Of a stretch of DNA of 64,000 nt, positions 4,559 to 13,430 are shown piece by piece; the first letter of the stretch is position 1; every line of letters begins with the position of its first letter. The stretch covers positions 5,641 to 69,640 of the forward strand of contig QHWJ01000237.1 in NCBI GenBank assembly GCA_003222535.1, given 5' to 3'. Origin of the DNA: Acidobacteriota bacterium (lineage in GTDB: Bacteria; Acidobacteriota; Vicinamibacteria; Vicinamibacterales; CAVVIG01). The notes beneath the pieces were generated by a model that was not told the origin of the DNA, did not search any database, and was given only the letters and a program-made list of their open reading frames with translations. Position numbers and translations under genes: made by a program.

Positions 4559-5488
4559 TCAATGGCGCGCCGTTTGCCGCGCCTCCGCAGGAGCGCCTGG
4601 CGGGACGGCCCCTCCAAGCACGCTGAACGCAACAGTGCCCCTGCCTTTGCGTTTGACGTCGTACATCACTGCATCCGCGGCGTCGACCGCTTTTGCCACC
4701 GACACGTCCGGATTCAAGAATGTGACGACTCCAATGCTGAAGCCAACCTCCAACTTACTCGAGGTGAGAGCCTTCTGAAGCCCGCGAGCGAGGTTCGCGA
4801 TAACCTCCTGCGCGCCGCGGTTGTCGGTACCGGGTAGGACCAGGGCGAATTCGTCGCCTCCAATCCGTGCCGCGGTGTCTGCCAGGCGCACTGAGTCTTT
4901 CAACACCCGGCCTGTCGTTCGCAGCACCCGATCTCCTTCGTTGTGACCATAAGTGTCGTTTACGGCCTTGAAGTTATTCAAGTCGACATAAGCAAGCGTG
5001 ACCGCGGTCTGGTGACGCTGTGCAAGTGCAAGGTCGTGCTCCAGTCTGTCCTCGAACGCACGACGGCCGTACAGTTCGGTCAAGCCGTCCGTCTCAGCCA
5101 GATGCCGCTGATGGAGAGAGCTGGCCCGGAGGGCAGTCAACAGCAAACTGGTGACGAGACAGAATGCGAATCGGATGAACGCGTTCCAAATCGGGATTGT
5201 GTGATGAGAATACTGGCTGTCGGAAACGATGTCTGAGATGTACCAGCCAACGCCGAAAATCAATGAGATGGCAACGCCCGCCCAACGTCCGACATACCAG
5301 GCTGCCACCGCGAATGGTCCGAGGTAGAAAAAGGAGACCGAGGCTGAGATTTCTTGTCCCGTGAAATAGTCCACACCTCCGATAACGACGACGCCGAAGG
5401 CTGCCAATCCCAACATCACGGCGCGAGCATGGCGATCCAGGGACCGATTCAAGAACGCTAGCGCACGTATCAGGCTTCGGCGGGTCAC
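4559..5488 (-). CDS. Membrane-bound diguanylate cyclase (GGDEF)
   Basis: N-terminal TM helices, TDGLT, FKAVNDTYGH, RIGGDEF; GTG 5488 overlaps the upstream stop (GTGA). Confidence 0.88.
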   Translation of the reverse strand: MTRRSLIRALAFLNRSLDRHARAVMLGLAAFGVVVIGGVDYFTGQEISASVSFFYLGPFAVAAWYVGRWAGVAISLIFGVGWYISDIVSDSQYSHHTIPIWNAFIRFAFCLVTSLLLTALRASSLHQRHLAETDGLTELYGRRAFEDRLEHDLALAQRHQTAVTLAYVDLNNFKAVNDTYGHNEGDRVLRTTGRVLKDSVRLADTAARIGGDEFALVLPGTDNRGAQEVIANLARGLQKALTSSKLEVGFSIGVVTFLNPDVSVAKAVDAADAVMYDVKRKGRGTVAFSVLGGAVPPGAPAEARQTARH

Positions 5489-7221
5489 CTCAAATTCACC
5501 ACCAGCGCAGCGCGGCGGTTGAGCCGGCGCGTTTCTTCGCGCGAGTTGTCGTACTTCGGCCGCTCCTCGCCGTAACTCACCGTGCGCAGCCGGTCGGCCG
5601 TGACGCCGCGGCTCACCAGGTAGTCCTTGACGGCGTTCGCGCGGCGATCGCCGAGGGCGAGGTTGTATTCGGCCGTGCCGATGCTGCAGGTGTGGCCTTC
5701 GATCTCGACCCGCAACGTCGCGTTCTCCCGCATGGCCGTGACCGCCTCGTCCAGCACCCGGGTCGCTTCCGGCCGCAGCGAGTAGCGGTCGAAGTCGAAA
5801 TACACGTCCTCGAATGTGTAGGTCCGCACCGGCGGCCGCGTCACCTGGATGTTGACGGTGTCGGACGCCGTCTTGTTGTCGGTCGGGCACGTCACGGTGA
5901 CCGTCACCGGCACGCTGCCTTCCTGCTGCGGCGCCGTCCACAGCGTCTGCCGTTCCGCCGGCTGCGCCAGCGTACCGATCGGTGCGGTCCACCGATACGT
6001 GACGGAGCAGCTCGTCGAGTCCTGCACGGTCGCGGTCACCGTGGAGCTCTTGCCCACCTCCACTGAACATGGATTGCAATCCGCTTTCACGGTCAGGTTG
6101 TGCACCGGCGCCGGCAGCGGCGGCGGGGGTGGCGGCGGCGGCGGCGGGGGCGGCGGCGGCACCCAGACTCGCACGCCCGGGTGATACCCGATCCGGAACT
6201 GCCAGTCGTAATAGTCGCCGAGGAGATCACCGGTGTCGGTGAAGCGCGTGTCGCGCGCCTTCGAGGGCACATTCCAGCTCGCACCGGCGCCGAAGAAGAA
6301 ACCTTTCTTCGACTGGACTGTAAGGCCGACGGTCGCCCGCGTGATGTGCTCCGTGTCGGATAGCAGCGGCGAGATGGTTCCATCGGTGCCGACGATGCGC
6401 GAACCTGTAATCGTCGCGCTGTCGCCCGACGGCACGTAGCCGTTCAGCTCGCCGGTGACCCGCACGATATTGCGGGATGGGAAGCCAATGCCGGTTCCCC
6501 AGCGGAACGCACCCTGGGCGGTATCGAAGCCGTCGGGCTTGCCGCGGAACTCGTAACCGCCGAAGCCGGCCCACTCGACCGTCCGCGCGAGCTCCTTGCT
6601 CGCGATCAGGTCCACCGAGACGTCGGCCTTGCCCGTGCCGTTGCCGGCGTCCTTGTCGGCGGTCGGCAGCTTGACCATCCCGCGCAGCGCGATCGCGGCC
6701 GGATTGAGGCGATACTCGGACCACAGGTTGAGCTTGGCGCCGGCGTAAAAGTCGCCGAGGTTATCGCCGGTCCAATGCTGGTTCACGCGCGGATAGCGGT
6801 CGATTACTCCGCCGAGGCTCGAGTCGTTGATGAAGAGCGGGTATGTGTCCCGGTCGATGCGCGTGTCGAAGAGGAAGGCGCCAAAGATCTCCGCGCGATC
6901 GCCGACGCCGACGCCGAACGTGCCGTCGAAGTCGCCGACGTTGGTGTACCCCTGCACCCAGTTCGTGCCGCGCCGATACCCGCTAACCGACCACCTTCCG
7001 CGGGGCAGCACTTCGGCGGTGGGCACAAACCACAACCCAGTGTCGCCGAAGAACGTCGTCGTGGCCGGTCGTGTTTGGTCCGCCGTTGCGGTCGACGAGG
7101 ACTGTGTTTGGCTGGTGGTGGGACTCTGCCCCGTGGATGTCCCTGAAGACCCTGTTTGTCCGCGGGCGCTCGCTGCTGCAACGAGCGCCAGCAGACAGAC
7201 CATGGCTGCGCGTCTTGCCAT
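5485..7221 (-). CDS. OmpA-family protein (beta-barrel, poly-Pro linker, Ig/PKD-like domain, OmpA_C)
   Basis: Signal peptide, long Pro run, VYFDFD..IEGHT..YNLALGDRRANAV..SYGEERP..NRRA. Confidence 0.9.
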   Translation of the reverse strand: MARRAAMVCLLALVAAASARGQTGSSGTSTGQSPTTSQTQSSSTATADQTRPATTTFFGDTGLWFVPTAEVLPRGRWSVSGYRRGTNWVQGYTNVGDFDGTFGVGVGDRAEIFGAFLFDTRIDRDTYPLFINDSSLGGVIDRYPRVNQHWTGDNLGDFYAGAKLNLWSEYRLNPAAIALRGMVKLPTADKDAGNGTGKADVSVDLIASKELARTVEWAGFGGYEFRGKPDGFDTAQGAFRWGTGIGFPSRNIVRVTGELNGYVPSGDSATITGSRIVGTDGTISPLLSDTEHITRATVGLTVQSKKGFFFGAGASWNVPSKARDTRFTDTGDLLGDYYDWQFRIGYHPGVRVWVPPPPPPPPPPPPPPLPAPVHNLTVKADCNPCSVEVGKSSTVTATVQDSTSCSVTYRWTAPIGTLAQPAERQTLWTAPQQEGSVPVTVTVTCPTDNKTASDTVNIQVTRPPVRTYTFEDVYFDFDRYSLRPEATRVLDEAVTAMRENATLRVEIEGHTCSIGTAEYNLALGDRRANAVKDYLVSRGVTADRLRTVSYGEERPKYDNSREETRRLNRRAALVVNLR

Positions 7222-7265
7222 TGTTGGTCGCCTCCAAAGTCGCCGTCAGCGATCGAGCGTGTCGT

Positions 7266-7526
7266 TCATTCACCACGATTCGTAGCCCCGCCGTCATCGG
7301 CGGCTTCGGGACCCGGCGTCGCGTCCGACGGGACGACGAGGCGACCCCTCCCGCCACGGCTGACCTGGCCGCCTTTCCGGCCTGCGTTGCGGGCTTCGTC
7401 TGCGGTCCACTCATGGGCCGTGCCCTTTTCGTGCGCCGCCCGCCCCCCTTTGCTCGCGATCTCCCGCTGCTTTTCGGCGGACATCGACGCGAACCCTCGT
7501 CGCTCTTTGCGTTCTGATGTATTCAC
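7266..7526 (-). CDS. KGG-repeat stress-induced protein (YciG/Con-10-like)
   Basis: RGFASMSAEKQREIASKGG..AHEWTADEARNAGRKGG; GGAGG RBS upstream. Confidence 0.9.
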   Translation of the reverse strand: MNTSERKERRGFASMSAEKQREIASKGGRAAHEKGTAHEWTADEARNAGRKGGQVSRGGRGRLVVPSDATPGPEAADDGGATNRGE

Positions 7527-7605
7527 CGCTAGGCCCTCCGTCTATTTACTGACACGGCATTCGAATCGCGTGCTCCCGTGCAGTACCAACGCTGCCCCAT
7601 AAGTC

Positions 7606-7621
7606 ATCAAAGTCTGTGCCC
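7606..7621 (-). promoter_or_regulatory. Putative sigma-54 promoter
   Basis: GGGCACAGACTTTGAT vs consensus TGGCACN5TTGCW (GA instead of GC at -12), about 80 nt upstream of the KGG gene. Confidence 0.4.
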
Positions 7622-7918
7622 GTCGGGACGTTTGGCCCTTTACCGTAAATGCTTGATTTAGTGACGATTTCGCGCGGGGTCGCGAAACACAGGGGCGCAG
7701 TGTTGCAGCAGTTTGCTACAGAAGGGCTGGTAAAGGTAGCGATTGACTGTCGAGTTTGCCCCTAACAGCCGGTGGTAGGGAATCTCGAGACTCGGAGGGG
7801 ATCTGATTCTGTTCGCCTGGCAGCCGAATGCCCTAAATTGCCCGTCGATCGGCAGACGTTGGCCAGCCGATTCCCCTTGGTTTGCGCGGGCTCTGGCGCG
7901 AGGCCTGGGAGCGGCGGG

Positions 7919-8254
7919 CTATTTGGACTGCTGCGGCACGTAACCAGGCGGCAGCGCGGCGCCGTCGCCGAAGAAGAAATCCTCCATGTGCTTGGCGACG
8001 AGATCCTGTGCTTCCTTCTGCCACGGCATGAGCCGGTACTCGTTGAGGATCATCTTCATGCGCTCCTCCCAGAGCTTCCAGGCATCTTTCGAGACGTGGT
8101 CGAAAATGCGCTGACCGAGCTCGCCGGGCCACGGCACCGAATCGAGGCCGGGCAGCTCCTTCTGGAATTTCACGCACATGACCTTGCGGCCGCTCTCGTT
8201 GCCGGCGGCGCCGGACGGGGCCGAGTGTGAGGTATGTCCGCAGGAATCAGCCAT
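7919..8254 (-). CDS. yggX: Fe(II)-trafficking / oxidative damage protection protein
   Basis: RKVMCVKFQKELPGL..PWPGELGQRIFDHVSKDAW..MILNEYRL..FFFG..GYVP. Confidence 0.9.
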   Translation of the reverse strand: MADSCGHTSHSAPSGAAGNESGRKVMCVKFQKELPGLDSVPWPGELGQRIFDHVSKDAWKLWEERMKMILNEYRLMPWQKEAQDLVAKHMEDFFFGDGAALPPGYVPQQSK

Positions 8255-8387
8255 GGTGCAGATTGTAGTGTATTTGCGTCCGGGACCATGTCCGACGCTC
8301 CCGGTAAGCGGGCTCCGGCGAAAAGCGGGCCGAATTCGCGAGTCGTTCCGCGCGAAGCGCGGCTGCTACGAGCCCGCGAGGCACGCC

Positions 8388-9716
8388 TCAAACGGGCGCC
8401 TCGGTGAGTACCGGGAATTCCGGATCGATGGCGAATGCGAGGCGCGCGTGCGCTGTACGCAAGGCTTGCTCGACGCCGGCTGCGCGATCGGCGCGCGCGA
8501 AAATAAATCCGAGGTAGCTCGCGCCTTCGGGCAGCGGCAGCAGCAGCTGATCCACCTTCGCCGTGATGAGGACGTCCTCCACACCGGGCGCCTGACGAGC
8601 GGCGTCGATGCCTTGCACGCCGCGGAAGATACCGCGCCGTGGAATCGGGATCATCATGACGCCCGACGCATCACTCTCGCGGCGCCACGCGCCGGGATTT
8701 TCGCCGAGCGCGTGACGCAGGAGAAGTTCCTCCAACGAGATGGCGGATTGCGGATTGGAGATCGCGGATTGGAGACGAAGCGCTCGCGCGCAGAGGCCGC
8801 CAATGGGGCGAGCCGCCACCTCCAGTACGAAGACCTCGGCCTGCCCGGATCCTGTCGACGGGTTCACCCGGCATTCCGCGTGAACGGGACCGTGATGGAG
8901 GCCGATGGCGTCGGCGGCGCTGGCCACGGTGGAAACGATCCGGGTCTGTACGTCCGCCGGGGCGGATGACGGGGTGACGTAAATCGTCTCCTCGAAGAAT
9001 GGGCCGTCCAGCGGGTCGGGCTTGTCGAAGATCGCGAGCACGTTCAACGCGCCGCGATGCAGCAGCCCTTCAACCGCGTACTCGCGTCCGGGGATGAAAC
9101 CCTCGACCAGCACCGTGTCGTGCGCTTCGTTGCGCTCGGCGCGAACCTCGCGCGTCCGCATGAGCGCGCGAAGGCGTTCGAGCGCCGCGCGAAACGTCGA
9201 CGGATCATCCGCGCGCATCACCCCTCGGCTCCCCGAGAGGGCCACAGGCTTCACGATGCACGGATAGGTCAATGGTGCCCTGTCAAGGGCTGAGGGCTGG
9301 GGGCTGAGGGCTGAGGACTGAGGGTCGATGGCCACTGGAAAGAACCACGGGACCGGCAAGCCGGCGTCGCGCAAACGTTCGCGCGTGAGCTGTTTGTGCC
9401 GCGCAATCGCCGCGGCTTCCGGCGGATGACCCGGCAGGCCGAACGCCTGCGCCACGCGCGCGCCGATGACCGTGGGCAGATCGCCGACCACCAGCACGCC
9501 GTCGATCGGGCGCGCCTTCGCCACCTGGACGATCGCGGCCACCGACGCGTCTTCGTCGTAGAACCGAATCGGGATTGCGTGGTCCTGCCAGGGATCCTCG
9601 ATCAGGTGACACCGATCCGTCGCGAAGACGAGATCCACCCCGAGCCGTTCGGCGGCTTCGCCGAATGCGCGCGTCTGATAGCCGGTCGTCGTCGCCAATA
9701 GAAGAACACGTGTCAT
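8388..9716 (-). CDS. ATP-grasp domain protein (L-amino-acid ligase-like)
   Basis: PCIVKP..SGSRGV, LVEGFIPGREYAVEG, HGPVHAECRV, LEVAARPIGG. Confidence 0.85.
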   Translation of the reverse strand: MTRVLLLATTTGYQTRAFGEAAERLGVDLVFATDRCHLIEDPWQDHAIPIRFYDEDASVAAIVQVAKARPIDGVLVVGDLPTVIGARVAQAFGLPGHPPEAAAIARHKQLTRERLRDAGLPVPWFFPVAIDPQSSALSPQPSALDRAPLTYPCIVKPVALSGSRGVMRADDPSTFRAALERLRALMRTREVRAERNEAHDTVLVEGFIPGREYAVEGLLHRGALNVLAIFDKPDPLDGPFFEETIYVTPSSAPADVQTRIVSTVASAADAIGLHHGPVHAECRVNPSTGSGQAEVFVLEVAARPIGGLCARALRLQSAISNPQSAISLEELLLRHALGENPGAWRRESDASGVMMIPIPRRGIFRGVQGIDAARQAPGVEDVLITAKVDQLLLPLPEGASYLGFIFARADRAAGVEQALRTAHARLAFAIDPEFPVLTEAPV

Positions 9717-9804
9717 GGCTCAGGGCTGAGGGCTAATGGCTATAGGTTGATGGTTGCTGGTGGTCCATTTCACCATTGCCATCAGCCATGAGCCATCGGC
9801 CATG
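9716..9804. repeat. Heptamer tandem inverted repeat (ATGGCTG/CAGCCAT type)
   Basis: GGCTGAG GGCTAAT GGCTATA GGTTGAT GG ... CCATTG CCATCAG CCATGAG CCATCGG CCAT. Confidence 0.7.
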
Positions 9805-9807
9805 TCG

Positions 9808-11292
9808 CTATAGCAGAGCAACCTGCTCTGCATTCGGCTCGGCTCAACAGTACCAAGGCTCGTTGAGATACGGGACGGTGGCGCGGTGGCGCGCGGGCCT
9901 CCCATCGGCCTGCCCTGAGCGAAGTCGAAGGGCCTGCTCTGAGCGGAGTCGACGAGTGGACGGAGTCGGAACGCCGGCGCGCTCGTGCGCGAGGGCGCTG
10001 ACCTGGTTGAACAGTGTCCGTCGATCCGCGATCAACTGCGTGCCCACCAACGCCATCGCATCGCGCTGCAGCGCGTCGACGCGAGGGTCGGGGTGGGTCC
10101 AGGGGTGCGTCAACGTCGCCGGATCGAACGCGCCGATGTGGGGGCGCATCTCGTCCACTGCCAGCAGCCCCGAGCCTCGGGGAATCAGCAGCCGGATGGC
10201 GAGCTGGATCGGCGACACGTGCTCGATGAGATCAAGGCTCTCGATCGTGTCGAGCAGCTCGCAGTACGACGCCAGCGTGAGCCACGGGTGAAACGCCACG
10301 AAGGTCGGCACCAGCGTCACCCCGGCCTCACGACACAACGCGACCGTCTGGAAGAAATCCGCGCGCGTGTGCCCCTTGCCGAGGAGCGCCAGCACGCGAT
10401 CGTCGACCGATTCGATCGCGCTCGTCACGAACGCGCAGCCGGTGTCCGCCAGCCGGGGCGCCAGATCGCGGTGGCGCAGGAGGTGCTCGACCTTGATCGT
10501 CACGTCGTAGCTGACCGCCGGATACGCCTCGTGCATCGCCGACACGATTCGCATCGCGTGCGTCGGGCCGTTGAAAAAATCGGGATCGCCGAACGTGATG
10601 TGCTCGGCGCCCGCGGCGATCTGCGCCGCCACGTCGGCCAGCACGATGTCCGGCTGCACGACGCGGAACTGCCCCTGGTAGACCGGTACGACGGGACAAT
10701 GCCGGCAGAGATGAAGGCATCCGCGGCTCGCCTCGGTGTAGCCGACCAGCCGTCGCTGGCCATCGGGCATCTGCAGCGTCGCGTAGCGCGAGAGCGGAGG
10801 CAGCCCGGTGCGATCGGGAAGGCGGAAATGAATCCGCGGTAACGGACGACGATCGAACGCGGAGCCCGCAAAGCCCGCAGAGAACGCATCGCTTGGCGCC
10901 CTTTGCGCGCTTCGCGCTCCTCGTTCGCCCGCCATCGACCTCGCGACCTCCGCCAGATCCTCTTCGAACTCCCCGCCGAGCACCTCGTCGGCTCCGAGCG
11001 ATCGCAGCCAGTCCGCGTTGAGCGGCGCATACAACCCGAACACGCAGATCCGCGCCGACGGGTTCAGACGCCTGGCGGTGGCGATGATCGGCGCAGCCAG
11101 ACGCGTCGCCGTATGCATCGGCAGGTGGAAGCCGATGAGGTCGGCGGAGACGAGATTCGCCTCCTGCAGTCGTTCCTTCGCTGCGTCCACCGGCGCCACG
11201 TCCCATCCCGCCGCACGCAGCCACGCCGCAGCGGAGGCGAGGGCGAATGGTTGACGGCCCATTTCGTACGTGCTGATGAGGACCGCGAACAT
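9808..11292 (-). CDS. CUAEP-tail radical SAM selenoprotein (B12-binding-like N-terminus); UGA 9846-9844 read as Sec
   Basis: CLHLCRHC radical SAM motif; frame continues EPWYC-TGA-AEPNAEQVALL-TAG; SECIS-like hairpin follows; start ATG 11292. Confidence 0.85.
9813..9831 (-). promoter_or_regulatory. Putative bacterial SECIS hairpin
   Basis: GCAGAGCA-GGU-UGCUCUGC, a perfect 8-bp stem starting 12 nt 3' of the in-frame UGA. Confidence 0.75.
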
Positions 11293-11315
11293 GCCTAGTA
11301 TTGTAGACTCCGCGC
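11293..11315. promoter_or_regulatory. Bidirectional overlapping -10 boxes for two leaderless genes
   Basis: TACAAT (minus, 11305-11300) 7 nt before ATG 11292; TAGACT (plus, 11304-11309) 6 nt before ATG 11316; no RBS on either side. Confidence 0.6.
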
Positions 11316-12587
11316 ATGGTTTCACGCCGCCATCCGCCGGGACTCTACGTGCTGTTCTTCACCGAGCTGTGGGAGCGCTACAGCTTCTATTCGATGATGG
11401 CCATCCTGTCGCTCTACATGAACGAGGCGCTGCAGTTCGACGTGGCCCACGTCGGGCGCGTGTACGGCGCGTACACCGCCGGAGTGTACTTCCTGCCGCT
11501 CTTCGGCGGCCTGCTCGCCGACCGCGTCCTCGGCTTCAACCGGGCCGTGATTGCCGGCGGCGTGCTGATGATGCTCGGTCACCTCGTCCTTGGCGTCGAA
11601 TCTCTGCCATTTTTCTACGCGGGGCTGGTCCTGCTCGCCTGCGGCAGTGGCTTGCTCAAGCCGAACGTGTCGACGCTCGTCGGGAATCTGTATCGCGACC
11701 GGCCGGAGCTGCGCGATCAGGGATTCAACATCTTCTATATGGGCATCAACCTCGGCGCGTTCATCTCGCCGCTGACCGTCTCGTGGCTGCGGACGCACTA
11801 CGGCTGGGGACCCGCGTTCATGTCGGCGGCGGGCGCGATGGTCATCTCGCTCCTCGTATTCATCGTGTTCAACCGCCACGTGGCCGACGCGGCCGTCAAG
11901 GTGGAGGAAAACTCCGTGGAGGCGCGGGCGTTGAGCCCCGAGGAGGCGCGATCGCGCGTCCTCACGCTCGTGGCGGTCTTCGCGATCTCGATGGTGTTCT
12001 GGCTCGCGTTCTACCAGATCTTCTACACCTTCACGTTCTGGGCGCGGGACAACACGCTGACCACGATCCCGCCGGAGCGGTTCCAGGTCTTCGAGCCGCT
12101 GGGCGTCATCCTGCTCTCACCCGTCCTGGTTGCCGTCTGGAGGTGGCTGCAACGCCGCAACGCCGAGCCGTCCACGCCGGTCAAGATGCTGTTGGGCGTC
12201 GTGCTCGTCGCCATCGCCTTTGGCATGCTGGCGTACGCCGGCATGACCGGCGGCGATGCCGGGCGTGTGTCGGCTCAGTGGCTGATCTGGGCGAACGTGA
12301 TCATCGCGCTGGGCGAGATCTCCCTCAGCCCGATGGGGCTCTCGCTCGTCAACATGCTGGCGCCGCCGCGCAACCGCGGACTCCTGATGGGCGGCTGGTT
12401 CGCCAGCCTCGCCACCGGCGGCTACCTGGCCGGATACATCGGCGGCTACTGGGACCGGATGCCGCACAGCCGGTTCTTCCTGATGGTCACCCTTATTCTG
12501 ATCGCGACGGCCGTGCCGTTGAGCCTGATGACGCTGCAAATCAAACGGACCATCGCGCGAAGCCAGACTGTGCCGGTGGGACAATAG
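11316..12587 (+). CDS. POT/PTR-family proton-dependent oligopeptide transporter (MFS)
   Basis: HPPGLYVLFFTELWERYSFY (ExxER motif), GGLLADR, LKPNVS, FYMGINLG, GEISLSP. Confidence 0.92.
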   Translation: MVSRRHPPGLYVLFFTELWERYSFYSMMAILSLYMNEALQFDVAHVGRVYGAYTAGVYFLPLFGGLLADRVLGFNRAVIAGGVLMMLGHLVLGVESLPFFYAGLVLLACGSGLLKPNVSTLVGNLYRDRPELRDQGFNIFYMGINLGAFISPLTVSWLRTHYGWGPAFMSAAGAMVISLLVFIVFNRHVADAAVKVEENSVEARALSPEEARSRVLTLVAVFAISMVFWLAFYQIFYTFTFWARDNTLTTIPPERFQVFEPLGVILLSPVLVAVWRWLQRRNAEPSTPVKMLLGVVLVAIAFGMLAYAGMTGGDAGRVSAQWLIWANVIIALGEISLSPMGLSLVNMLAPPRNRGLLMGGWFASLATGGYLAGYIGGYWDRMPHSRFFLMVTLILIATAVPLSLMTLQIKRTIARSQTVPVGQ

Positions 12588-12590
12588 ACC

Positions 12591-13430
12591 ATGGCGCTCG
12601 AAGAGTACAAACGCAAACGCGACTTCAGGAAGACGCCCGAGCCGGAAGGCACGGTCGCCGCGAAACAGGCGGAACGTGAACGCTTCTTCTGCGTGCAGAA
12701 GCATCTGGCGACCCACTTGCACTACGATTTCCGGCTCGAGCACAACGGCGTCCTGTTGTCGTGGGCCGTACCGAAGGGCCCGTCGCTCGACCCGACGGTC
12801 AAGCGGCTCGCAATGAAAGTTGAAGATCACCCGATCGAGTACGGCGAGTTCGAAGGCGTGATCCCCGAGGGCTACGGCGCCGGGATCGTGATGCTCTGGG
12901 ATCGCGGCACGTGGACGTCCGAGACAGGGGATGTCGACCGGGCGCTGACGAAGGGCGACCTGAAGCTCACGCTGAACGGCTACAAGCTGAAAGGCTCGTG
13001 GGTCCTGGTGCGGACCGGCGGGCGCTATGCCCGTGCGCGAGGCGGCGGCGATCGATCGTGGTTGCTGATCAAGCACCGCGACGACTGGGCGGGTGATCTC
13101 GACATCACCGAGTTCGCGCCGCGCAGCGTGAAGAGCGACGGCGACTTCGAGGACATCCTCGCGGAGGACAACCCCGCGATCTGGCACACGAACCGACCGG
13201 CCAAGGGCGGCGAGACCGGTACGATGTTCACCGGGATCATCGAGCGCGCGGCCGCATTGAAAGCCGCGCGCTCCACAAAGGACACAAAGGTTACAAAGGA
13301 CACAAAGGTTACAAAGGACACAAAGGTTACCAAGGACACAAAGGTTGCGCGAGAATCAAAGAAAAAGGCCGTCCCCGCCAGCATGACGTCGAAGACCAAG
13401 AGCGGACGGAAACCACCAGGACAGAAGTAG
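12591..13430 (+). CDS. Stand-alone LigD 3'-phosphoesterase (PE) domain protein with repeat-encoded basic tail
   Basis: LEEYKRKRDFRKTPEP, VQKHLATHLHYDFRLE, SWAVPKGPS, EDHPIEY; no ligase or polymerase domain. Confidence 0.9.
   Translation: MALEEYKRKRDFRKTPEPEGTVAAKQAERERFFCVQKHLATHLHYDFRLEHNGVLLSWAVPKGPSLDPTVKRLAMKVEDHPIEYGEFEGVIPEGYGAGIVMLWDRGTWTSETGDVDRALTKGDLKLTLNGYKLKGSWVLVRTGGRYARARGGGDRSWLLIKHRDDWAGDLDITEFAPRSVKSDGDFEDILAEDNPAIWHTNRPAKGGETGTMFTGIIERAAALKAARSTKDTKVTKDTKVTKDTKVTKDTKVARESKKKAVPASMTSKTKSGRKPPGQK
13275..13346 (+). repeat. 4 x 18-bp tandem repeat ACAAAGGACACAAAGGTT (TKDTKV)
   Basis: Three identical units plus one with a single mismatch. Confidence 0.95.

Follow-up and report, generated by a model that had tools for sequence, protein, structure and literature searches.

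What chemistry would unite a radical S-adenosylmethionine (SAM) enzyme that ends in an adjacent cysteine-selenocysteine (Cys-Sec) pair with an amino-acid ligase of the ATP-grasp type? The question is raised by a small locus in a 64,000-nucleotide stretch of an Acidobacteriota genome (this whole stretch is called the window below). An initial annotation, made from the DNA letters alone, had placed a radical SAM gene, an ATP-grasp gene and yggX co-directionally on the minus strand, with a transporter gene of the POT family diverging from them, and all four genes lie where it put them (Table 1). Comparative genomics shows that the predicted Sec-containing paralogue of the arsenic enzyme ArsL and the ligase, which has the architecture of the L-amino acid ligases (LAL), are a conserved, co-inherited pair. 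New here is the ligase as the partner of a named, uncharacterised radical SAM family; this pairing was not found described in the literature searched.

The radical SAM protein belongs to the CUAEP/CCAEP-tail radical SAM (seleno)protein family, which the initial annotation had named (NF040546; 615.4 bits against a cutoff of 500, residues 15-503). In the preprint by Haft (2022, 10.1101/2022.07.06.499078), the family is described as uncharacterised and as one of a few selenoproteins with a CU motif, a motif linked there to heavy-metal handling. The literature searched, preprint supplements aside, yielded no published function for the family, in line with the initial annotation, which had known of none; on the same terms, the literature on ArsL and selenocysteine, on the radical of 3-amino-3-carboxypropyl (ACP) and on the RCCLKC motif yielded nothing on the CUAEP family or an ATP-grasp partner. 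The second-best model is that of ArsL (NF040542; 275.7 bits over residues 15-423), which catalyses the opening reaction on the way to the arsenic antibiotic arsinothricin, and the third-best reaches only 35 bits. The Pfam Radical_SAM domain scores 49 bits, with the cluster motif CxxxCxxC at C203/C207/C210 (97-99% conserved). More than 8,000 proteins match this protein at E < 1e-20, and among solved structures no sequence match was found at E up to 0.01. The C-terminal C-[U/C]-AEP motif recurs in 78 homologous loci, where it follows a linker that varies in length and sequence, as expected for a mobile arm, and opens a conserved end, AEPxxEQ[VLF]AL[VIL]. Outside the cluster motif and the tail, the family's conserved cysteines are C297 (97%), C94 (82%) and C331 (57%). 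An auxiliary four-Cys iron-sulfur (Fe-S) cluster, which would explain the Nfu-type Fe-S carriers found beside some pairs (see below), was considered and rejected, as these are the only three conserved beyond motif and tail.

Neighbourhoods were compared in 80 loci, kept from at least 598 relatives in a scan of species genomes, with partners sought by tblastn. The loci span Acidobacteriota (Vicinamibacterales, Bryobacterales, Terriglobia and Acidiferrales), Chloroflexota, Thermomicrobiales, Methylomirabilota, Calditrichia, Latescibacterota and Entotheonella. The ligase gene is present in 51 of the 80, every time downstream and on the same strand; for seven of the 29 loci lacking it, the available sequence extends less than 1.4 kb downstream. 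Leaving these seven aside, the ligase gene adjoins the radical SAM gene in 51 of 73 informative loci. The conserved adjacency that the initial annotation had made the test of its idea is thus present. In all five of five genomes with a ligase-less radical SAM locus (two Chloroflexota, one Thermomicrobiales, one Calditrichia and one Latescibacterota), a full-length ligase orthologue (43-47% identity) is encoded elsewhere.

The two genes also travel together when they are not neighbours. In raw tallies without statistics, made over related genomes that are not independent of one another, the radical SAM gene occurs in 71 of 401 sampled genomes of the window's phylum, the ligase gene (called there at E of at most 1e-40) in 81, and both in 68; the 68 pairs comprise 40 within 5 kb, 7 further apart on the same contig and 21 on different contigs. 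The corresponding tallies in a second phylum (Chloroflexota, the phylum of genome G402; 301 genomes) are 73, 92 and 70, with 47 adjacent pairs (ligase first in 18, radical SAM first in 14, convergent in 14 and divergent in 1) and 23 unlinked ones. Four unpublished genomes are included (G024, G578 (ligase only), G152 (YggX-positive) and G443 (both genes)), and no claim rests singly on any of them. Where the ligase gene is unlinked, its neighbours are heterogeneous: a HAD hydrolase, peptidases (S9, M28 and M16) and dehydrogenases. That the same pattern appears in two phyla with shuffled gene order is hard to explain without a functional link, and the two-enzyme module of the initial annotation is upheld by both adjacency and co-inheritance, even in unlinked form.

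The predicted selenocysteine of the radical SAM tail is real, judging by three lines of evidence: a covarying selenocysteine insertion sequence (SECIS)-like hairpin, exchange between TGA and Cys codons among homologues, and Sec machinery in the same genome. Under translation table 11 the open reading frame halts at a TGA right after ...PYLNEPWYC; read as U494, the frame continues with AEPNAEQVALL and then meets TAG. A 7-bp hairpin begins 12 nt downstream of the UGA. When the window is aligned with 69 TGA-bearing homologues (n = 70), the hairpin positions pair in 82.9% of cells, against 43-51% when the 3' partner columns are slid, and 57 cells are changed on both sides, a number reached in 0 of 500 shuffles. 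Among the 78 homologous loci with a readable tail, the U494 position is TGA in 69 and a Cys codon (TGC or TGT) in 9; the tail is cut or unresolved in the other two of the 80 (L021 and L046). The nine Cys-codon homologues mostly fold no hairpin there (L089 retains one and L058 a weakened one) and lose the EQ-x-AL codons that make it up, so part of the tail's conservation at the protein level reflects RNA structure. Among Chloroflexota, Cys forms are common. The window's genome (8.06 Mb, 450 contigs, 95.5% complete) encodes SelA (531 bits), SelD (352 bits), two predicted tRNA-Sec and SelB, which appears as two neighbouring pieces on a single contig (168 and 134 bits, neither of which reaches the cutoff of 242). 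SelD is found in 10 of 10 genomes that carry a Cys form, but likewise in 9 of 10 genomes without the radical SAM-ligase pair.

Two further observations concern selenoproteins. The selD gene of the window's genome (G000:C19:2733-3656) itself has an in-frame TGA, as do 18 of 19 above-cutoff SelD genes from 20 Chloroflexota genomes; this SelD is probably a selenoprotein. On the megaplasmid of Thermomicrobium roseum DSM 5159 (NC_011961.1), the annotated CUAEP/CCAEP-tail gene (L118:8932-10440) ends at a TGA, and read-through gives ...ESWFC-U-AEPLEDP..., which indicates that a selenoprotein is cut short in the record; the gene is flanked by those for a PLP aminotransferase (divergent) and an MFS transporter (convergent).

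To our knowledge, no canonical radical SAM enzyme apart from ArsL, which co-purifies with arsenic, is yet known to yield an ACP species in place of a 5'-deoxyadenosyl radical. In the accounts of Yao et al. (10.1101/2024.02.01.577332) and Serrano et al. (10.64898/2026.04.29.721666), ArsL cleaves SAM to methylthioadenosine and an ACP species, forms an Fe-C(ACP) organometallic intermediate and bonds ACP to arsenite, which sits on the three Cys of the RCCLKC tail; this C-terminal motif binds arsenite and is required for product formation. The window's family was compared with ArsL residue by residue, using local alignment of 77 family members, the annotated ArsL of a Pseudomonas amygdali plasmid and two RCCLKC-tail proteins from Bacillus cereus and Priestia megaterium plasmids. 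Across more than 80% of the length, the window's protein is 31-33% identical to the annotated ArsL and the RCCLKC-tail proteins, and the CC of RCCLKC aligns exactly with C493-U494. The C297 position, Cys in 97% of the CUAEP family, is L, V and V in the three ArsL-type proteins.

The ligase carries three domains, all above cutoff: PF13535 ATP-grasp_4 (106.6 bits), PF18130 ATPgrasp_N (47.4 bits) and PF18603 LAL_C2 (53.9 bits). Its best solved relative is BL00235 (PDB 3VOT; E = 5.4e-38, residues 20-407), and BacD is matched with an E of about 1e-6; none of the NCBIfam equivalogs scores above its cutoff, and an ESM Atlas search with the ligase returned only clusters of LAL architecture. A ligase homologue on a Pantoea plasmid lies in an unrelated context. 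BacD and TabS couple a non-proteinogenic amino acid that is toxic with a common one. According to Table 2 of PMC6920838, BL00235 makes Met-Gly and Met-Met. Methionine is itself an amino acid of the ACP-X type, where X stands for the atom bonded to ACP; as a hint only, the Met substrates of BL00235 point to the use of such an amino acid by the window's ligase.

Since ArsL is the nearest characterised relative and its CC is aligned with C493-U494, the pathway that we tentatively favour, as quite possible rather than probable, is an ArsL-like alkylation of an atom held by the Cys-Sec pair, followed by ligation of the product into a dipeptide. In the first step, the radical SAM enzyme would transfer the ACP group of SAM to an atom X held by the flexible Cys493-Sec494; C297 could serve as a third ligand, in which case Cys-Sec plus C297 would again provide three soft ligands. 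The product would be ACP-X, a methionine-like non-proteinogenic amino acid. In the second step, suggested by the LAL family, the ligase would condense ACP-X with a second amino acid at the expense of ATP. X may be one of the chalcogens Se, S and Te, or else a different metalloid, for instance Sb; YggX, or Nfu in other lineages, would probably supply iron or Fe-S clusters, going by its place in the neighbourhood. The earlier idea of an organometallic or amide product made through a Cys-Sec arm would thereby take the concrete form of an ArsL-like pathway.

A second family offers a parallel. Plasmids searched by tblastn with the radical SAM protein as query gave 37 records, among them the T. roseum gene and a P. 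amygdali match in an arsQ-arsL-...-arsM-aquaporin-arsN1 cluster. Radical SAM genes with an RCCLKC tail occur on 20 Bacillus, 7 Priestia and 1 Alicyclobacillus plasmids, and LAL-type ATP-grasp genes on exactly 28 plasmids with identical taxon counts; the 20 Bacillus ligase copies are identical, those of Priestia have 52-54% identity and that of Alicyclobacillus 42%. On the B. cereus and P. megaterium plasmids, the radical SAM gene sits in an island with ArsR, Acr3, ArsC, ArsN1 or GNAT, an aquaporin and a CobW GTPase, about 2-3 kb from a CMD-ATP-grasp-ArsR unit whose ATP-grasp protein has ATP-grasp_4 and LAL_C2 domains (25% identity to the window's ligase, E = 1e-17); ArsM was not found in either of the two islands inspected. 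Given these islands and the window's family, both sister ArsL-like families keep company with LAL ligases. The Bacillaceae islands may make a hydroxyarsinothricin-derived dipeptide that has not yet been described.

Several observations weigh against an ArsL-like pathway. The window's protein, at 275.7 bits, misses ArsL's own cutoff of 450 bits, and the third tail Cys of ArsL aligns with P497, a position that is Cys in 0% of the CUAEP family. An AlphaFold2 model of the radical SAM protein (21-row alignment; mean pLDDT 56.8, cluster motif and tail below 50) is too poor to place the tail relative to the cluster. Each of the three ArsL-type loci inspected is part of an ars island. For the CUAEP family, the 80 loci were extended to 100 with 20 from genomes in which the pair is unlinked or only the ligase is present (and to 120 with 20 further Chloroflexota loci). 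A search for 21 arsenic-island proteins within about 10 kb of the 100 loci gave no convincing match, only one ArsR-like and one weak methyltransferase-like hit; arsenite is argued against by this lack of flanking arsenic genes, and arsenic is unlikely to be the element. Co-inheritance also has exceptions: the radical SAM gene occurs without the ligase in three genomes of the window's phylum (G034, G265 and G331) and in three of the second phylum, and the ligase occurs alone in 13 of the 330 genomes of the window's phylum that lack the radical SAM gene and in 22 of the 228 such genomes of the second phylum (6 of the 13 at least 97% complete; four of the 22 matching at only about 1e-43). The ligase therefore has, or is able to find, a substrate without this radical SAM enzyme. 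Finally, it is the ligase gene, not the radical SAM gene, that the iron protein accompanies: of the 100 loci, 71 have the ligase, and YggX or Nfu lies within 3 kb in 56 of these but in 4 of the 29 that have the radical SAM gene alone, a difference which upkeep of the radical SAM enzyme's Fe-S cluster would not predict.

The same two enzymes might instead use canonical chemistry, in which a 5'-deoxyadenosyl radical would act on an amino acid or on the dipeptide made by the ligase (to epimerise, C-methylate or cross-link it, for instance) and the Cys-Sec pair would act as hydrogen-atom donor or redox couple. Such pairs are C-terminal redox arms in thioredoxin reductase, and the cluster motif, the B12-binding-like N-terminal domain, weak matches to class B radical SAM methylase models (25-35 bits, against cutoffs of 360-650), the missed ArsL cutoff and the lack of metalloid genes nearby all fit this explanation. 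However, ArsL (276 bits) stands very far ahead of all other characterised families (at most 35 bits), the Cys-Sec pair aligns exactly with the substrate-binding CC of ArsL, and the B12-binding match (PF02310, 29.2 bits) falls below its Pfam threshold of 32.1. Canonical chemistry is thus an unlikely explanation, if by no means a far-fetched one.

The neighbours of the ligase suggest another function, in iron or Fe-S homeostasis: ligase, YggX or Nfu, and radical SAM enzyme would together make or handle an iron-binding small molecule (an ACP-containing metallophore, or a low-molecular-weight thiol or selenol) or service a metallocluster, with the Cys-Sec tail carrying Fe or S. Of the 80 radical SAM loci, 46 encode YggX; its gene is co-directional in the clade of the window, mostly convergent elsewhere and placed upstream in L040, L041 and L055. 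In the 20 loci from unlinked or ligase-only genomes, the ligase adjoins YggX in 7 and an Nfu-type carrier (Pfam NifU with Fe-S_biosyn or Nfu_N) in 7; the 20 further Chloroflexota loci have YggX in 11 and Nfu in 2. The iron-protein genes, usually convergent and with gaps below 150 nt, swap at the same position across lineages in two phyla, and ligase-Nfu pairs persist without the radical SAM gene (L112-L115). On the other side, YggX occurs in 161 of the 401 genomes of the window's phylum, against 71 with the radical SAM gene: it is present in 44 of the 71 radical-SAM-positive and 117 of the 330 radical-SAM-negative genomes, including every radical-SAM-negative genome of the window's order. The neighbourhoods contain no recurrent transport or regulatory genes for siderophores or metallophores, and most of the pairs are convergent and cannot be co-transcribed. 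A dedicated iron function is, on balance, clearly improbable. By gene order and distribution, YggX/Nfu is a robust ligase neighbourhood in which one iron-handling protein displaces another, not an obligatory partnership; of the yggX link in the initial annotation, the conserved neighbourhood stands, with Nfu as replacement in other lineages and the ligase as its focus, whereas inheritance with the pair does not, YggX being inherited independently.

The short, conserved end segment of the radical SAM protein might suggest that the ligase modifies this tail in the manner of RimK, or that the two enzymes bind each other tightly and the tail serves as the shuttle for an intermediate. This is very improbable: the ligase has the architecture of free-amino-acid ligases (LAL_C2 and the BL00235 match), the overlapping SECIS explains much of the tail's conservation and the Cys forms vary there, the C-terminal residue is not invariant (T. 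roseum ends differently), and the genes are unlinked in 28 of 68 and 23 of 70 genomes. That the two are neighbours by inherited gene order only, as the recurrence of POT, LigD 3'-phosphoesterase (LigD-PE) and molybdopterin oxidoreductase genes nearby in the window's order might suggest, is barely credible, being contradicted by the counts, in which the pair co-occurs unlinked, in two phyla and in four adjacent arrangements.

Such synteny does account for the POT transporter, which the initial annotation had tied to the pair. POT is found in 22 of the 80 loci, all of them with the LigD-PE gene, a marker of order-level synteny present in 27 of the 80, and in 0 of 20 and 0 of 20 of the further loci; about 14 loci have a sodium:solute symporter gene in front of the radical SAM gene instead. 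By this distribution, the conserved module does not include the POT transporter, whose link to the pair is confined to one order. The initial interpretation as a whole was therefore partly supported, with the module and the family confirmed, the role of YggX narrowed and the transporter lost.

Other neighbours recur more locally. DUF169 (PF02596) lies beside the radical SAM or ligase gene in 10 of 120 loci of both phyla (L054, L066, L079, L088, L134-L138 and L142), between the two in L066 and L079; the DUF169 literature turned up nothing useful. A formyltransferase-like gene (PF00551 N-domain, about 300-355 aa) stands beside YggX or the radical SAM gene in 11 of the 20 Chloroflexota loci (loci with this gene: L123-L131, L140, L141 and L098) and in 0 of the 80 loci of the species-genome scan. 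lipB, lipA and PDH-E1 genes lie directly beside the pair in 6-7 of the 20 Chloroflexota loci, in a clade (L132-L137, from genomes G503, G440, G566, G650, G521 and G476) where they are mostly on the same strand. Nfu-type carriers service LipA. A link of the pair to lipoate was considered and set aside, as this arrangement is absent from the 100 other loci and is probably local synteny.

Within the window, the radical SAM protein likely starts at Met12 (ATG at 11292-11290), a start favoured by homologues, whose alignment begins at about residue 12-15. The 23-nt gap to the POT gene given in the initial annotation holds with this start; the longest open reading frame (GTG at 11325) would overlap the POT gene by 10 nt. 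The ligase gene starts 91 nt downstream of the radical SAM stop codon. YggX scores 112 bits on PF04362 and 114.5 bits on NF003817 (cutoff 74), and its true start is likely the Met at 8179. The POT protein scores 273.6 bits on TIGR00924 (cutoff 130.2) and 202 bits on PF00854, and contains ELWERYSFY, which we take to be the POT/PTR2 motif ExxER[FY]xYY. An Rfam scan of the whole window gave nothing at gathering thresholds; a scan of 7200-12800 found no promoter-like site and a single terminator-like one. Of the four genes, yggX alone is matched without differences by contigs from two metatranscriptome libraries of one study (7911-8252 and 7970-8227), a result that carries no weight for the other three.

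Table 1. Positions of the genes and sequence elements discussed, in window coordinates unless a locus handle is given.
Feature	Position	Strand	Description
Radical SAM selenoprotein gene	9808-11325	-	505 aa with U494 read through; NF040546
In-frame TGA (U494)	9844-9846	-	11 in-frame codons after TGA; motif conserved
SECIS-like hairpin GCAGAGC-AGGUU-GCUCUGC	9813-9831	-	Inside the final codons of the radical SAM gene
LAL-type ATP-grasp gene	8388-9716	-	442 aa; PF13535, PF18603 (LAL_C2), PF18130
yggX	7919-8254	-	Fe(II)-trafficking / oxidative-damage protection protein; PF04362, NF003817
POT-family proton/oligopeptide symporter gene	11316-12587	+	423 aa; TIGR00924, PF00854; divergent from radical SAM gene
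LigD-PE gene	12591-13430	+	Stand-alone LigD 3'-phosphoesterase domain, TIGR02777 213 bits; C-terminal tandem repeat, KDTKVT x4
KGG-repeat stress protein gene	7266-7526	-	
Terminator-like site	7401-7422		
OmpA/Pal-like protein gene	5485-7221	-	578 aa; 14-proline run ahead of OmpA domain
Bacillaceae arsenic island, B. cereus plasmid	L120:1130-9528		
Bacillaceae arsenic island, P. megaterium plasmid	L121:4354-11534		

The CUAEP/CCAEP family is a large sister group of ArsL, found in 71 of 401 and 73 of 301 genomes of two phyla, and its co-inheritance with a ligase of the dipeptide-forming kind makes an orphan selenoprotein part of a two-enzyme pathway that can be tested. If the ArsL-like proposal is correct, its products would be new carbon-heteroatom natural products, perhaps an antimetabolite dipeptide like arsinothricin or bacilysin or a new selenium metabolite, and the rare Cys-Sec motif would have a reason. 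A possible general rule, 'ArsL-like enzyme plus LAL ligase', would extend to the uncharacterised Bacillaceae arsenic islands. In its broadest form, the proposal describes a near-core pathway that is widely distributed among soil Acidobacteriota and Chloroflexota, with roughly one fifth to one quarter of the genomes sampled carrying it, and in which a second ACP-transferring family of canonical radical SAM enzymes would bond carbon to a non-arsenic atom (for example Se, Te or Sb) on a Cys-Sec arm before dipeptide formation, giving a new class of organo-selenium or organo-metalloid metabolites that depends on a dedicated Fe or Fe-S supply; we hold this full version to be doubtful. With a cultured and non-pathogenic carrier, T. 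roseum DSM 5159, and natural Cys forms, experiments are feasible.

Among known systems, the arsinothricin cluster arsQML is one of the closest. ArsL shares with the window's radical SAM protein the two-domain layout and a flexible C-terminal tail with an adjacent CC at the C-U position, and it too has a tailoring enzyme near its gene and often a transporter. However, its tail is RCCLKC rather than C-U-AEP, the window's family having gained C297, lacking the third tail Cys and using Sec in most members; its partner is the methyltransferase ArsM rather than a ligase; and it is tied to arsenic islands, whereas the window's family is widespread in Acidobacteriota and Chloroflexota. The Bacillaceae islands, in which an ArsL-type radical SAM enzyme is accompanied by an ATP-grasp_4 and LAL_C2 ligase and ArsM is lacking, resemble the pair in this respect, but their ligase is only 25% identical, lies about 2-3 kb off and stands in clear arsenic-resistance islands that hold ArsN1 and Acr3. 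The GCUG tail of thioredoxin reductase and the CU motifs of HgcA and MerB-like selenoproteins present the same adjacent Cys-Sec pair in a C-terminal segment; their folds are unrelated, and in the window's family the pair sits on a radical SAM enzyme. On the ligase side, BL00235, BacD (bacilysin), RizA and TabS share the three-domain LAL architecture with the window's ligase. Unlike a member of a sporadic antibiotic cluster, the window's ligase is inherited like a core gene in whole orders.

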